The translations under genes were made by a program, and so were the position numbers. 63,991 bases of DNA. Source: Patescibacteria group bacterium (GTDB taxonomy: Bacteria > Patescibacteriota > Microgenomatia > JAMCZE01). The notes beneath the pieces are model-generated. The model worked only from the letters and a program-made list of their open reading frames with translations. It made no database searches and was not told the origin of the DNA. Of the stretch, positions 1 through 6,357 are shown in pieces; the stretch's first letter is position 1, and the number at the start of each line of letters is the position of its first letter. The stretch covers positions 1 to 63,991 of the forward strand of contig JAMCZE010000014.1 of NCBI GenBank assembly GCA_023485845.1. The letters run 5' to 3'.

Positions 1-87
1 GAGACAGTCATCCAAAAGTACATCAGAAACCAAGGAAGACCAAAAGACTATGTCCAAATATCAAAAGACCAACTCAGGCTATTTTAG
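1..87 (+). CDS. tnpA: IS200/IS605 Y1 (HUH) transposase TnpA, C-terminal fragment
   Basis: In-frame ...ETVIQKYIRNQGRPKDYVQISKDQLRLF*, identical to the end of the full copy at 23216-23689. Confidence 0.85.
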   Translation, partial: ETVIQKYIRNQGRPKDYVQISKDQLRLF

Positions 88-98
88 CAATGCAGATG

Positions 99-118
99 CC
101 TCGCAGCTTGCTGCGAGG
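99..118 (+). repeat. IS200 right-end subterminal hairpin
   Basis: CCTCGCAG-cttg-CTGCGAGG, 8-bp perfect stem. The same structure occurs at 23701-23720. Confidence 0.7.
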
Positions 119-129
119 AGTGTCACTTG

Positions 130-143
130 TCATACATGTATGA
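130..143. repeat. Perfect 14-bp palindrome abutting the IS200 right end
   Basis: TCATACATGTATGA starts at the first base after copy A/copy B identity ends. Confidence 0.6.
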
Positions 144-212
144 CAATCTAGGATATTGGTGTGCCTATATTGTCGTCATACCACCTAACAGGGTATATAA
201 ATACAATTGAGG

Positions 213-251
213 TTGGGAACGTCACCAAACGCACTAGGGTGACACTGGGCG
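213..251 (+). repeat. Left copy of imperfect direct repeat flanking the AT-rich island
   Basis: Ungapped 31/39 identity with 5439-5477. Contains the GTCACC...GGTGAC inverted motif. Confidence 0.5.
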
Positions 252-275
252 AGAGATTTAGCTTCAATCAAGTAT

Positions 276-812
276 TTATAATCCAAACCCCAAAGTGATA
301 CTTTGACCAGACCTTTTTCCGCAAAAATCTATATTAGCCATAATTCCTTCTCTTTTGATATCTACATATCGAAATTCAGCTATATTTGGTGTCGGATTCA
401 CAATTGGCTGATCTGCTAATACTCCGGCTAAAGCAAGCATGAACTTCAGCCATTCATCATCGTTTTTACAAAAACTACAAGGTAAGCCGTATTCACCCAA
501 TAATTGAGTTAATTCAGATCTAAATTCTGGCAGTAGAAGGAAATCAATGTTTCCATTTTTGGGATAAGTGTCTATGGAATCGTCAATTTTGGTCATAATC
601 GCTTCCATAGCAGAAGTAATGTGATCTTTCCGTGTATGAACGGACCAATCAGCATGGAAACGAACTAATGAGTATAAATCTTTGTGGCATGATTCTCTTT
701 CTCTATCAAGAAGTTTTCTTAATTCAACCAACAGGTAAACAACCTCGTGTTCCTCTCTCATTTTATTCTCGTTTAGAAATCTGTTTAGTTTTTCAACTAT
801 TTGTATTTTCAT
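276..812 (-). CDS. Hypothetical protein (178 aa), downstream partner of the ATPase-Toprim gene
   Basis: Intact ORF on the same strand, 19 nt downstream of 832-2619. AT-rich codon usage like its neighbours. No motif recognised. Confidence 0.65.
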   Translation of the reverse strand: MKIQIVEKLNRFLNENKMREEHEVVYLLVELRKLLDRERESCHKDLYSLVRFHADWSVHTRKDHITSAMEAIMTKIDDSIDTYPKNGNIDFLLLPEFRSELTQLLGEYGLPCSFCKNDDEWLKFMLALAGVLADQPIVNPTPNIAEFRYVDIKREGIMANIDFCGKRSGQSITLGFGL

Positions 813-831
813 AACAACGAACGCATTGGCT

Positions 832-2619
832 TTAACTTTTTAGCTGCTCTATAAACTGTTTAACTTCATCGGGATATCTTTCAGTATCAATATTCTGAAG
901 TATTTTTTCTTGAAATCCCTTATAGGTTAGAGATTTGACATATTGCGAGGTTTTAACAAACTCCTGGTATAGATCTTTAAGAACTTTTTTACCGTCAACT
1001 TTTAATGGTTCAGTGAGCGCTTTTTGTTCTACGGTCCCCAAAATTGTATTGATCTCATCAACTGTAAACTCTTTTTCCCCAGAGGTAGATGCTAATTTTA
1101 ACGCCTCTTTATCTAATAGAAAAAGATTCTCCAAATTTGTAAATGGTGTAGGAATAACATTCTTATATTTTGAGGTATCAACAGTTGGAGTTAAGTCCTT
1201 ATCGACAAGTGCAAAAACTTTAAGATTGGTTTGATATTGAGAAAGGCTTTCCAGTAAAGCAATAAACATTGTTGTTGCTTTCACAACTCCACCTTTACTG
1301 CCTGAACCGACTTTGGCAATTCCTGCTGGAATAAAGACAACCTTACATTTTTTAGGATCTATCAACCTTTGGTAGATTTTATAATCTTCAAGTTGATTGT
1401 CAGCCTTTTCTACACCCTCAACATATATAATTTTGGGTATCAAATAGGCCAAGTCGAACCTTTTACCTAATGAGTGAAGTAGCTCTACTCTTGAGCTTAA
1501 ATTATCTATTTTTTCGATAGATTTTGCATCGGAAGTTATCTGGTAAACATTCTCTGCATTTACCGATATGAGATCGGGAGAATGAGTAGCTATTAAACAG
1601 CTGAAGTCTGAAGCTTGAGAAAATACCCCTTTCATAAATTCAGCTAATCTAGTTACGTATTCAGGGTGGAGATGAATATCTGGCTCATCTATTAACACAA
1701 CTGGTTTATATTCTTGTCTTTCCCATTGTAGGAGCATTCCTGCTAAACCGATAACTTGTCTTTCTCCCGAACTGGCAAATTGTATTGGGTAGCTTTTGTC
1801 AATCCTTGTATTTGTCATCTTGAATTTAATTTCACCTTTTTCAATTTGATTTTTATCGTAGTTAAGCTCCAACGGGCTGATAATATAATTAATTCTTTCG
1901 AGTGCATTCTCGAGTAATGGAAAGGTTTTATGAGTATTCTTGAAAACATTCCATATATCCATCATTGCTAATCGGTTAAGCAGATTCCCAAGTTGGATAT
2001 TCGTTCTTGAAGATCTTTGTCTTAGATCAAAATCACCTGATAATACATCCATCATTTCAGTAGCTCTCGGAGTACCTCCTAAAAAAGTTGTTCCACCTTC
2101 ACTGATATCTTGCAAAGGTTTAATATATGCAACCAATACCTTACTTCTTCCTAATTCAGCATACCAACTAGGTACGTCAGGGCGTGAACTACTTCCTAAA
2201 AATGTTCTTGTTGGTCTTTCATCAGGAAAACGTAATGGAATCGCCACTTCAGTAGTAAAATGATATCTATCCGATATTTTTGTCAGATCCTGGCACATAT
2301 TCTGGAATACTTGCTCAGAAGATGGAAACGCTTGAGGATTTCTTTCTGTTAGCAATCCCGATAAATATTTAATTTCGCTTTCATTAAAAGAACCTGTGAT
2401 TTTCCATACTGCTTTATCTGCTGTAATTCCATTAACGATGGTTGCATCTATTTGGTTAATATCAACACTGTTTAATATGAAGTTTGTAACCTCAAGGATT
2501 GTTGATTTACCAGTACCATTTTGTCCGGCTAATATAATGAATCCAGTTAGATCCGAAGATGTAACCTCAAAATTCTCAAAGCCTCTAAACCCAGTAATTT
2601 TTATGTTCTCAATTTTCAT
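832..2619 (-). CDS. OLD-family-like ABC/SMC-type ATPase fused to a Toprim/DUF4435-like nuclease domain
   Basis: Walker A GQNGTGKST, signature-like SSGERQ, Walker B VVLIDEPDIHLHP, H-loop ATHSPD. The C-terminal part has IIYVEG (Toprim Glu) and ALVDKD (DxD). Confidence 0.75.
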   Translation of the reverse strand: MKIENIKITGFRGFENFEVTSSDLTGFIILAGQNGTGKSTILEVTNFILNSVDINQIDATIVNGITADKAVWKITGSFNESEIKYLSGLLTERNPQAFPSSEQVFQNMCQDLTKISDRYHFTTEVAIPLRFPDERPTRTFLGSSSRPDVPSWYAELGRSKVLVAYIKPLQDISEGGTTFLGGTPRATEMMDVLSGDFDLRQRSSRTNIQLGNLLNRLAMMDIWNVFKNTHKTFPLLENALERINYIISPLELNYDKNQIEKGEIKFKMTNTRIDKSYPIQFASSGERQVIGLAGMLLQWERQEYKPVVLIDEPDIHLHPEYVTRLAEFMKGVFSQASDFSCLIATHSPDLISVNAENVYQITSDAKSIEKIDNLSSRVELLHSLGKRFDLAYLIPKIIYVEGVEKADNQLEDYKIYQRLIDPKKCKVVFIPAGIAKVGSGSKGGVVKATTMFIALLESLSQYQTNLKVFALVDKDLTPTVDTSKYKNVIPTPFTNLENLFLLDKEALKLASTSGEKEFTVDEINTILGTVEQKALTEPLKVDGKKVLKDLYQEFVKTSQYVKSLTYKGFQEKILQNIDTERYPDEVKQFIEQLKS

Positions 2620-2686
2620 AAACTTGCTATATACTATTGCAATTGTTATTTACAAATGCTTATAATAATTTATATCATAATCTCAT
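2620..2686. promoter_or_regulatory. Divergent AT-rich intergenic region (putative divergent promoters of the island)
   Basis: 67-nt spacer between divergent genes. Contains TATAAT-like elements (tataataat, tatact). Confidence 0.3.
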
Positions 2687-2866
2687 ATGGAAAACAACGA
2701 ATTTTATACAGTAGAACAGGTTGCTGACCTTCTTAAAGTCCACTGGCAAACTGTGCTCAATTATATTAAAGGCGGAAAGTTAAAAGCTGTTAAACTAGGC
2801 AAAGGATATCGAATTTCCAAAGAGGCATTAAACGATTTTGTAAAGGAAAATCAAACACAAAGTTAA
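2687..2866 (+). CDS. Excisionase-family / MerR-like helix-turn-helix DNA-binding protein (59 aa)
   Basis: MENNEFYTVEQVADLLKVHWQTVLNYIKGGKLKAVKLGKGYRISKEALNDFV matches the excisionase-type HTH pattern. It falls below the ORF-track size cutoff. Confidence 0.65.
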   Translation: MENNEFYTVEQVADLLKVHWQTVLNYIKGGKLKAVKLGKGYRISKEALNDFVKENQTQS

Positions 2867-2888
2867 TCATATTAACCTTTAGTTAATT

Positions 2889-4007
2889 ATGGCTAGAGAA
2901 GCATCAAGCAAAAATCTTATAAACGCAAGACGGGCAAAAAACGATGAGTTTTATACCCAATACGGCGATATCCAGAAAGAAATTGAAAAATATCTGGAAT
3001 ATAATCCAGATACTTTTCGCAACAAGGTGGTATATTGCAATTGCGATGATCCGTTCGAGAGTAATTTCTTTCGCTATTTCGTACTTAACTTCAACAAGCT
3101 TGGATTAAAACGGCTTATCACCACAAGTTATAAACCTTCGCCTGTAGCTAACACTCAGCTCCAATTGTTTGGCGACGATAAGACCCTACCGAAGTCAAAA
3201 GGTCGTCCCAAGATTACCGCCAACAAATTTATTATTAACGAAGTGCACGACATAGATGAGGATGGCGAATTCAACTTAAAGGATGTCGCCAAACAACTAA
3301 AAACAAATAAACATAATGAATGGACGCCACTTGAAGGCGATGGAGATTTTCGTAGCGATGAATGTATAAGCCTCCTTAAACAATCCGACATTGTTGTAAC
3401 GAATCCACCTTTCAGCTTGTTTCGTGAATATGTTAAGCAACTTTTTGATTACAAAAAACTCTTTTTGATTATTGGAAATATTAATTGCATAACTTACAAG
3501 GATATATTTCAAAAAATTAAAAATAATGAAATTTGGCTTGGTAATGGTATGGGAAGATGGATTTCTGGATTTATAGTACCTGAATCCTATGACTTATATG
3601 GAACAGAGGCGCGTATAGATGAAGATGGAAACAGAATTGTCGCCACTAATAATTGTTTGTGGCTTACTAATCTTGACCATGGACGACGCCATCAACCATT
3701 AGCACTCATGACAATGAAAGAAAATTTGAAATATAGCAGACACAAAGAAATTAAAGGTAAAAATACATATGAAAAATATGATAATTATGATGCTATAGAA
3801 GTACCTTTCACCGATGCGATTCCAAGTGATTATAAAGGCATAATGGGAGTGCCTATTAGTTTTTTGGATAAGTACAATCCTGAACAATTTGAGATATTAG
3901 GAATGGACGATCATAGGATGCAGTATCCTAATTGGAGAGGTAGAGGTCCTGATTTGAATGGAAAGCCTGCTTATAGAAGAGTTATTATTAAACATAAGAA
4001 TAAATAG
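2889..4007 (+). CDS. N6-adenine DNA methyltransferase (EcoRI-methylase-like family)
   Basis: The N-terminal KNDEFYTQ...[17 protein letters not shown] and catalytic VVTNPPF motifs are typical of the EcoRI_methylase-type family (from memory). Confidence 0.75.
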
Positions 4008-4008
4008 T

Positions 4009-5172
4009 ATGAAACCAATATTAAAAAACAATATAACTATTCAAGAGATCTGTGATGGATTTGTTTATAACGAGCTTGAGGGTAAAGGTCTGTTTGGCCT
4101 GTCTGGAAAGCTGACCATTCAACCCGAATATCAGCGAAACTATATCTATGCAGAAGAAAAAAGAGAAGCAGGCGTAATCGAGTCCGTTCTGAAAGAATAT
4201 CCAATTGGCTTGATTTATTTCAACAAGGTGGGCATAGACACATTCGAAGTTTTAGATGGGCAACAGCGAATAACTAGCCTCGGACGATTTATCACCAACA
4301 AGTTTGCTATCAAAGATGAAAATGGAATGCCACAGATTTTTGGTAACATGGCTAAGGACAAGCAAAATAAAATCTTAGAAACAAAACTGCTAATTTATGA
4401 GTGCGAAGGAACGGAAAGCCAAATAAAAGAATGGTTCAAGACAATAAATATTGCAGGTGTTCCACTCAATAATCAAGAACTACTTAACGCTGTATATTCT
4501 GGTCCATTCGTAACTAAAGCCAAAGAGGAATTCAGTAATAGCCAAAACGCCAACATTCAAAAGTGGAGTGCGTATGTATCAGGTAGTGCCAATAGGCAGG
4601 AATTTTTGGGATGTGCACTGGATTGGGTAAGTAAAGGCAATATTGGCGATTATATGAGTAAACACCGCCAAGACAAAAATATTGATGAATTGAAAAAATA
4701 TTTCAACACAGTAATCGATTGGATATCTAATGTATTTGTTGATGTAGAATCCGAAATGCGAGGTCTTGAATGGGGACGACTTTACGAGCAGTATCACAAA
4801 AAATCATACGACCCAGTCAAAGTGTCGGCCGAGGTACATAAGCTTTATAGTGACTTTTTTATTAAGGATAAAAAAGGAATTTTCGAGTATATTTTGGGAG
4901 GTAATCACGATACAAAATTGCTTAATATTCGTATTTTTGACGAACCGACCAAAAGATCTGTTTATGAAAAACAGACTCGTGAAGCTGTAACTAAAAAGAA
5001 ATCAAACTGTTCATTCTGTGCAGTTGGACACGATGTAAACAAGGATAAAATTTGGAGTTTTGGCGAAATGGAAGCCGATCATGTGTCATCCTGGAGTAAA
5101 GGAGGCACAACGGATATTAAGAATTGTGAGATGTTGTGCAAAACTCATAATCGGGCAAAGGGCAATCGATGA
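4009..5172 (+). CDS. DUF262 (ParB/GmrS-like, DGQQR) domain protein with C-terminal HNH nuclease
   Basis: [10 protein letters not shown] motif. C-terminus CSFCAVGH...[32 protein letters not shown] (HNH). The ATG at 4009 lies 1 nt after the MTase stop. Confidence 0.75.
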
Positions 5173-5438
5173 AAACTACCAATGTTATGTATACGAAATA
5201 CTCGGAAAAAACCCGGGAAATAACATAGTCCGATTTGAAACTGCAATGTAACTCTTCAGAAAAATAATCGATCAAAAACAATAGTTTTTCTATGGGTGTT
5301 TAAGATCAAGAGACTCTATCTTCAGAAGACTTTGAAATCAACAGGTGGGTTGTGTTTTTGACTGTTGACCTTACTCTAAAATAATCAAGCAAGTTTTCTC
5401 CAGGATACAATCCTAATATTGACGGCGGCCTTGCTGTT

Positions 5439-5477
5439 TTGGGTATGTCACCAGACGAGCCAGGGTGACACCAGGCG
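5439..5477 (+). repeat. Right copy of imperfect direct repeat flanking the AT-rich island
   Basis: 31/39 identity with 213-251. Folds TGTCACC...GGTGACA. Confidence 0.5.
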
Positions 5478-5808
5478 TGTTTTCTTGAACCTAGTTGAGT
5501 TACTTATGCCTTATCTCCAATTTTGTTCCATAACCAATATGGTGAATTTACTCACGAAGCGATCTGATAAGCAGGTTGAGGAGCAGGAAGCTGAATATAG
5601 GTTTTCAACGTATTGTACTGTAAAATAAGATTATCAAGTAAAGTGTTCCATTTAAGGGACACTATGCTCACAGTCTTAAATATCGCCATTGCCTATGTCT
5701 TTATGGTAATTTACTTGATTGGGAGAAAGTTAGAAGCTATATGTCTTGCCTGGTTGCACCTGCGGCATTGATAATTACCCCTCGATCTTCTAATCTGATT
5801 GTGGACAT

Positions 5809-6357
5809 ATGGCCAAGAAAGTGCTCGACGAAGTCGGGATAAATTTATTGCCGGGGGATGACCTGGAAGGCCGGCCCGGGGGCATCTTTTTGAAGTGGGC
5901 TTTAACCTGGGGCAAACGGATTGTCATTGTCACGGAACTAATTGTGATTTTGGCCTTTTTGTCCCGCTTTTGGCTGGATACAACGGTGGCTAACAATTCT
6001 GATCTCATCAGCCAAAAACAGGCAATTGTTGCTTCGGAAGACAGTTTTGAAACCCAGTTTCGCACCGTCACCAATCGCATCGTCCAGGCTAAGACCATTG
6101 AGGCTCAGGTTTCCCCGTTGGTTGTTTACGACACCGCCCAGGCTCTGATCCCCCCACAAATTGCCGTTAACCAATTTGTGGTGACTAACGAAAAAATTAA
6201 TTTTGGTGGCCAAAGTGATGCCGCCGCGATTGCCCAACTGGTTAGCAACTTTAAGAACTCCCCGGACTTTTCTGGTGTTAACGTGGAGAAGATTTCTAAA
6301 AGCAGCGACGACCCAAATATTATTTTTACCTTGTCAGCCGATTATGTCCATCACTGA
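5809..6357 (+). CDS. pilN: Type IV pilus assembly protein PilN-like
   Basis: N-terminal GINLLP motif followed by a single TM helix. Size is about 180 aa. Confidence 0.6.
   Translation: MAKKVLDEVGINLLPGDDLEGRPGGIFLKWALTWGKRIVIVTELIVILAFLSRFWLDTTVANNSDLISQKQAIVASEDSFETQFRTVTNRIVQAKTIEAQVSPLVVYDTAQALIPPQIAVNQFVVTNEKINFGGQSDAAAIAQLVSNFKNSPDFSGVNVEKISKSSDDPNIIFTLSADYVHH

Follow-up and report, generated by a model that had tools for sequence, protein, structure and literature searches.

A predicted merged PARIS (AriAB) protein in a Patescibacteria defence island and a co-located small-protein family without a fixed partner

The left end of a 63,991-nucleotide (nt) stretch of DNA from a Patescibacteria group bacterium (contig JAMCZE010000014.1 of assembly GCA_023485845.1; this whole stretch is referred to as the window, and all window positions are counted along it) carries an island of low guanine-plus-cytosine (GC) content, in which a gene for a 595-amino-acid (aa) ATPase-nuclease is followed by a gene for a 178-aa protein. 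Judging from its sequence, the 595-aa protein belongs to the merged AriAB type of the PARIS system (class 4 of the OLD family), that is, a protein with an already described architecture. Its gene probably represents a self-contained, single-chain PARIS, with the 178-aa gene being co-located with it rather than serving as its component and the two forming just one of many interchangeable arrangements. An earlier reading of this DNA, made without database searches (the sequence-only reading), had correctly placed both open reading frames (ORFs) on the same strand, which is the minus strand, with 19 nt separating the 595-aa ORF from the 178-aa ORF downstream of it. Both are genuine genes and not chance ORFs, because each of them has many relatives and invariant residues. 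The two genes and the two domains of the larger product are as follows.

276..812, minus strand: 178-aa ORF, with relatives in homology searches and nine invariant residues
832..2619, minus strand: 595-aa ORF, predicted fused AriA-AriB, PARIS-like (OLD class 4)
1525..2619, minus strand: ABC/SMC-type ATPase domain of the 595-aa protein (aa 1-365), which contains a helical insertion and is defined by four ATPase motifs
1090..1452, minus strand: putative Toprim/DUF4435-type nuclease domain of the 595-aa protein (aa ~390-510), defined by invariant acidic residues and the AriAB match

The ATPase domain of the 595-aa protein contains the Walker A motif GQNGTGKST (aa 32-40), the ABC signature SSGERQ (aa 283-288), the Walker B/D-loop segment VVLIDEPDIHLHP (aa 307-319), and the H-loop ATHSPD (aa 344-349), all four of which are invariant in 19 aligned relatives. 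Together with IIYVEG (aa 397-402) and ALVDKD (aa 470-475) in the C-terminal part, these are the six motifs quoted in the sequence-only reading, and every one of them was located. Pfam matches (AAA_15, 2.9e-21; AAA_21, 3e-19; and SMC_N) cover the ATPase part only. The best PADLOC model is the one for fused AriAB (PDLC02981, 4.9e-30), whose alignment reaches residue 508, and the best match among PDB sequences is AriA (8ux9, 1.9e-8). A word-limited homologue search, in which 8,000 candidates were scored, yielded at least 22 full-length relatives with 38-74% identity; so far, this lineage has been found only in Patescibacteria-type metagenome bins.

The C-terminal residues that are invariant in the same 19 relatives comprise E401-G402, D412, Y416, D421, D473, D475, T491-P492, E497-N498, and G543-K544. 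Among these, E401, D473-x-D475, and E497 occur in the same order as, and at roughly the spacing of, residues E26, D88, E90, and E122 in the Toprim domain of AriB (PMC11464382). When used alone, the C-terminal 233 aa still match the PADLOC AriAB model (1.3e-8). The C-terminal domains of 2 of the 12 relatives reach Pfam DUF4435 (best score, 3.5e-5), and in hhalign the family profile is aligned with P0125, a 599-aa AAA_15+DUF4435 fusion, with a probability of 99.1% across the VEG, DKD, and EN positions. A profile of the 12 C-terminal domains produced only noise against PDB sequences, AriB not being found. In the AlphaFold2 model of the 595-aa protein (predicted local distance difference test score [pLDDT] of 82), strands alternate with helices over residues 396-490. 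The combination of an ABC ATPase with a Toprim-type domain in one chain, recognized in the sequence-only reading, is thus borne out by the PADLOC and hhalign matches.

The merged AriAB form of PARIS has been assigned to class 4 of the OLD family (Rousset et al. 2022; Burman et al. 2024, PMC11464382), and two PARIS clades with merged ariAB genes (“merged 1/2”) have already been described. The 595-aa protein resembles them in having a single chain in which an AAA_15/AAA_21 ATPase precedes a predicted DUF4435-type Toprim domain with the E...DxD...E pattern, and its gene, as a single-gene system, lies in a defence island beside restriction-modification (R-M) genes. It differs from known PARIS proteins in being very divergent and of a lineage so far seen only in the metagenome bins mentioned above, and, unlike in the two-protein system, its nuclease, being fused to the ATPase, cannot be set free. 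The same ATPase-Toprim fold is found in Gabija GajA (OLD class 2) and the retron Eco8 effector (OLD class 3), which, along with the Thermus scotoductus (Ts) OLD protein, are the top full-length Foldseek matches of the 595-aa model. The genomic context fits neither of these two classes. No UvrD-like GajB is encoded next to the 595-aa gene, the neighbours being the 178-aa protein, an HTH_17 protein, a methyltransferase, and a restriction endonuclease; as for the retron-linked OLD proteins, no reverse-transcriptase ORF was found in the island and no Rfam RNA in positions 1-6000. Class 1 OLD proteins (phage P2 Old and the T. scotoductus OLD, 6p74) share with the 595-aa protein the single polypeptide in which the ATPase precedes the Toprim domain, as well as structural similarity along the whole chain. 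Accordingly, the 595-aa protein could be viewed as a class 1 nuclease of the P2 Old type that acts on DNA, rather than as a PARIS-type tRNA nuclease: the single-gene layout would fit, Ts OLD and GajA are among the best whole-chain Foldseek matches, and there is a PADLOC match to Old at 1.1e-15. This assignment is nevertheless very unlikely, as that PADLOC match is confined to the ATPase core (residues 301-367) and is outscored by AriAB by about 47 bits, the best PDB sequence match is AriA, and the C-terminal domain gives matches to AriAB and DUF4435 but never a Toprim_Old signal, so that its Toprim is not of the Toprim_Old type and the sequence models favour AriA/AriAB. Of the two options offered in the sequence-only reading, it is therefore the PARIS type (fused AriA-AriB with DUF4435) and not the classical OLD type that fits.

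The conclusion that the 178-aa protein is not a component of this system comes from gene neighbourhoods, viewed from both sides. Six contexts of ATPase orthologues (38-74% identity) could be read, and in these the downstream gene either differs or is absent:

P0103, 74% identity: followed by a gene for a 350-aa TPR protein
P0104, 74% identity: followed by a gene for a 185-aa S51-like protein
P0109, 59% identity: 157-aa gene upstream and 224-aa gene downstream
P0118, 43% identity: stands alone
P0120, 42% identity: stands alone
P0122, 38% identity: stands alone

The 185-aa and 224-aa downstream proteins were considered as cryptic relatives of the 178-aa protein and rejected (hhalign probability <1%). 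At the locus with the 59%-identical orthologue (L066, 5531-9279), the 157-aa gene overlaps the start of the ATPase gene, and the 224-aa gene is followed by a DUF5677 gene; a DUF5677 protein is likewise encoded near a gene of the 178-aa family in L164. A hidden Markov model of the small family detected no member at any of the 89 ATPase-bearing loci. When metagenomes were scanned with the ATPase alignment, only distant relatives came up (at most 30% identity over the full length, with higher values only in short ATPase-core segments); since all of them are distant, that scan is uninformative on close synteny, and its loci were used as the negative set when the small family was searched for.

Viewed from the other side, a scan of the genome collection, which rests on two peptide patterns, revealed 64 loci with relatives of the 178-aa protein in many Patescibacteria lineages, Acidobacteriota, Omnitrophota, Bdellovibrio, and others. 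An orthologue of the 595-aa ATPase is encoded at none of these 64 loci. Searches with both ATPase halves using tblastn, which misses very divergent ATPases (the one in L010 was seen by Pfam alone), found nothing adjacent to the small-family genes except for a weak Walker A match in L037. Clustering of all ORFs within 4.5 kb of these genes revealed no conserved neighbour. Among the 111 immediate neighbours, Pfam domains included HNH_5 (in 4 proteins), methyltransferases, resolvases, Fic, and AAA_21 (2 each), and AAA_15 (1); about 8-10 neighbours match defence models, and others are housekeeping genes (gyrA, MurJ, SRP54, and RNase E/G). The protein closest in sequence to the 178-aa one (78% identity) is encoded behind an unrelated 548-aa protein, and proteins 74-79% identical to the product of either gene already have other neighbours. 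The sequence-only reading had proposed an undescribed two-gene module with the 178-aa protein as a partner, and had itself set the lack of synteny between homologues of that protein and such ATPases as a result that would overturn it. Synteny is absent from both sides, the pair not being conserved in relatives of either gene, and the proposal is therefore not supported. Its premise that such a partner is lacking in PARIS is correct, and most simply the 595-aa protein has none either.

In the wider small family, a tight upstream gene is found at about a quarter of the loci, whereas at approximately two thirds of 62 loci the upstream gap exceeds 100 nt or the neighbour is on the opposite strand. 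Some of the more distant members follow genes for an OLD-like ATPase (L010, 55-nt gap), a PLD protein (L027, 45-nt gap), or a PDDEXK/DUF5655 protein (L014, 5-nt gap). The proteins encoded upstream were searched for a hidden domain in common, and none was found, and a search for a mobile cassette in the DNA flanks of 10 close relatives of the small gene revealed nothing in common. Members of the 178-aa family turn up repeatedly in variable and defence regions, without a fixed partner. The arrangements in its closest clade, defined as the members at least 66% identical to the window protein, differ from those in the wider family: the small genes are the last or second-last ones behind unrelated genes, several of which are defence genes. 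The nine distinct upstream genes of this clade encode the following products.

AriAB-like protein (the window)
472-474-aa unknown protein (a seven-gene operon within an element carrying a serine recombinase)
alpha/beta hydrolase
HNH_5 protein (L157, in the order HTH_17, 432-aa protein, HNH_5)
1,228-aa unknown protein (L154, after type IIG R-M and SLFN_AlbA_2)
DUF87/HerA protein (L159, after SIR2_2 and a type I R-M system)
215-aa protein (after an FtsK-like gene)
311-aa unknown protein
548-aa unknown protein

In L159 (4051-7540), the small-family gene (P0034) is located 27 nt behind the SIR2_2 and DUF87/HerA pair, which itself comes after a complete type I R-M operon, and a further gene, for a 150-aa protein, lies 19 nt downstream of P0034. 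In L151 (1981-14305, from Roizmanbacteria), the small-family gene ends a seven-gene operon that starts with HTH_17 and is contained in a block of ~12 kb, which ends with a large serine recombinase and is situated between radical-SAM and secA genes; this block is probably an integrated element, with nearly all of its genes unannotated. In L060 (3844-6318, from Patescibacteria), a small-family gene follows, on the same strand, the same R-M pair as in the window (methyltransferase 50% and restriction endonuclease 40% identical to those of the window). It keeps only the first ~70 residues and looks truncated or decayed.

The 178-aa family itself is large. A word-indexed search yielded 100 relatives, and an exhaustive profile search (E<=0.001) yielded 1,935 representative clusters at 50% identity. 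The invariant residues of the family alignment (A1) are Y26, E30, R32, K33, D36, R51, W56, H59, and W121, and an ADQP motif is near-invariant. The window protein is soluble and mildly acidic (pI 5.6; family median, 5.8). As the sequence-only reading had said, it has no recognizable motif, and searches of Pfam, NCBIfam, PADLOC, PHROGs, and PDB sequences gave no match; the A1 profile likewise produced only noise against PDB sequences. The structure prediction suggested in that reading gave a confident AlphaFold2 model (pLDDT 88; predicted template modelling score 0.83), in which several helices precede a C-terminal sheet of four strands. This model has no fold match, as a Foldseek comparison with PDB and BFVD returned nothing better than an E-value of 0.18 and a template modelling score of at most 0.27. 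The residues R51-x7-H59 were considered as a HEPN-like motif, a reading that was dropped because the spacing is outside the Rx4-6H range and a HEPN fold match is absent. A scan of viral contigs confirmed no relative of the family, and a phage-borne or anti-defence origin is therefore unsupported. A small conserved gene that lies beside many unrelated neighbours is reminiscent of the Panacea (DUF4065) antitoxin domain, a hyperpromiscuous partner gene. This analogy would extend to the 178-aa family in the arrangement only, as the family resembles no known antitoxin in sequence or fold, and many of its members have no operonic partner.

Certain observations weigh against the view of the 595-aa gene as a self-contained PARIS with an unconnected neighbour. 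The 19-nt gap and the shared strand suggest co-transcription of the pair, and a local functional link could therefore exist. In all nine distinct closest-clade arrangements, the small gene is within ~30 nt of, or overlaps, the same-strand upstream gene, which hints at a non-random placement at operon ends. In L010, a small-family member is paired with a 613-aa OLD-like ATPase-nuclease (AAA_15), although this protein is not an orthologue of the window ATPase. Further, the count of orthologue contexts is limited to the six that were readable, many contigs being short. Finally, of the Pfam and PADLOC matches sought on the advice of the sequence-only reading, those to AAA_15, AAA_21, and AriAB were obtained, but Pfam DUF4435 has no match on the 595-aa protein, and its C-terminal 233 aa match no Pfam family at E<=10, so that the DUF4435 assignment is transitive.

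Two other explanations concern the relation between the two genes. One of them, a dedicated and so far undescribed defence system made up of the ATPase-Toprim protein together with the 178-aa protein, is highly improbable: the strand, the gap, the common low-GC island, and the second, distantly related ATPase-nuclease and small-family pair in L010 would be expected of such a system, yet the pair is seen in none of the 6 orthologue contexts and none of the 89 ATPase loci, any ATPase-nuclease is present in at most 1 of the 64 small-family loci, and the 74-79%-identical relatives of either gene are found next to other genes. Another explanation is that the 178-aa family is a generic accessory, a promiscuous module at the 3' end of many defence operons, including that of the PARIS-like gene, where it could possibly act as a regulator, a neutralizer (antitoxin-like), or an infection sensor for the preceding effector. 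In its favour, close relatives are the last or second-last genes, at most 27 nt from the preceding gene, in arrangements that include those in L159, L154, and L157 and that with the AriAB gene of the window, the more distant members in L010, L027, and L014 follow the genes named above, and defence models are matched among the neighbours at the frequency given above. This explanation is nonetheless unlikely. Many members look stand-alone, given the upstream gaps and opposite-strand neighbours at most loci; a number of neighbours (MurJ, alpha/beta hydrolase, gyrA, and SRP54) have housekeeping or other roles outside defence; the small genomes of Patescibacteria are usually tightly spaced anyway; the 178-aa protein lacks a DNA-binding or known antitoxin domain; and the upstream partners have no common feature to recognize. 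A related proposal, which is similarly doubtful, is that the family represents a fold-novel “tail gene” of defence operons, found mainly in Patescibacteria and portable behind unrelated effectors (PARIS-like, OLD-like, SIR2-HerA, HNH, PLD, and type IIG R-M with SLFN), to all of which it would supply the same function, for example the control of autoimmunity, regulation, or the sensing of infection. The single-chain PARIS with a co-located small gene is the preferred explanation.

Besides these two genes, the 5.2-kb island contains an HTH_17 gene and a type II R-M pair and is bracketed by a direct repeat:

2687..2866, plus strand: 59-aa HTH_17 (MerR/excisionase-type) protein, transcribed divergently from the ATPase gene (Pfam HTH_17, 8.9e-15)
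2889..4007, plus strand: EcoRI-type N6-adenine DNA methyltransferase of type II (Pfam EcoRI_methylase, 3.3e-128; PADLOC MTase_II, 6e-116)
3958..5172, plus strand: GmrSD_N (DUF262) + HNH restriction endonuclease (PADLOC REase_II PDLC03418, 8.2e-88; Pfam GmrSD_N and HNH)
213..251, plus strand: left copy of an imperfect 39-nt direct repeat (GTCACC-N11-GGTGACAC) that bounds the island
5439..5477, plus strand: right copy of the 39-nt repeat, where the GC content begins to rise from ~35% towards 48-60%

The longest ORF of the restriction endonuclease shares 50 nt with the methyltransferase gene. Its PADLOC alignment begins only at residue 21, and a second Met codon, at nucleotide 4009, lies just past the methyltransferase stop (end 4007); the true start is therefore probably at 4009. 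The GC content is 32-39% over positions 1 to ~5500, compared with 48-60% further to the right. The two repeat copies are 79% identical and carry the inverted repeat GTCACC-N11-GGTGACAC; the 39-nt repeat has exactly two matches across the 64 kb, with zero expected by chance, and no copy was found in the 163 other loci that were searched. A role for it as a hairpin or terminator was rejected, as folding is weak (z about -0.5) and a T-tract is absent. Because of this weak folding, the repeat looks more like an att-type (attachment) or protein-binding site than a terminator. Given that the low-GC block is bracketed by the repeat, its five genes were probably acquired as one block. The contig itself begins inside an ORF (window positions 1-160, plus strand), and the 28 aa at its end, ETVIQKYIRNQGRPKDYVQISKDQLRLF*, have weak tblastn matches below significance (E about 0.8) to the C termini of IS200/IS605 TnpA proteins. 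This ORF is followed by two strong 8-bp hairpins, at 99-118 and 127-146 (z = -2.2), and the two features together may represent an insertion sequence end at the contig break. ARAGORN detected no tRNA or tmRNA genes across the 64-kb window, and Rfam had no match in positions 1-6000 at E<=0.1.

Type II R-M genes adjoin the AriAB-like lineage in 3 of its 7 contexts, each time with a different enzyme:

Window, 2687-5172: EcoRI-like methyltransferase with GmrSD/HNH
L066, 3232-4827: MvaI/BcnI
L161, 1487-3867: HinfI

By analogy with the two-protein PARIS of Escherichia coli, the source of what is known here of trigger sensing and tRNA cleavage (PMC11464382), the N-terminal ABC ATPase of the single-chain PARIS protein would sense a trigger encoded by the phage, for example an anti-restriction protein. 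An ATP-dependent rearrangement would then unleash the C-terminal Toprim nuclease (E401, D473/D475, and E497), which would cut host tRNA and stop translation. The placement of the PARIS-type gene, divergent from the type II R-M genes, would fit a back-up role for the time when restriction is inhibited, and the three cases of this lineage beside type II R-M genes fit the “anti-anti-restriction” logic of PARIS.

This locus is thus properly annotated as a merged PARIS (AriAB) encoded by one gene and adjoining a type II R-M system, and not as a new two-gene system. The 595-aa ATPase is a new, divergent member of an already known type, one that widens the range of merged PARIS to include very divergent lineages of the Patescibacteria type, which standard Pfam models miss. 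The 178-aa family is a separate and interesting matter: a large unnamed family (~1,900 clusters) with a confidently predicted fold that has no structural relatives and that recurs in defence islands, which would make it a reasonable, if unproven, target for functional screening.

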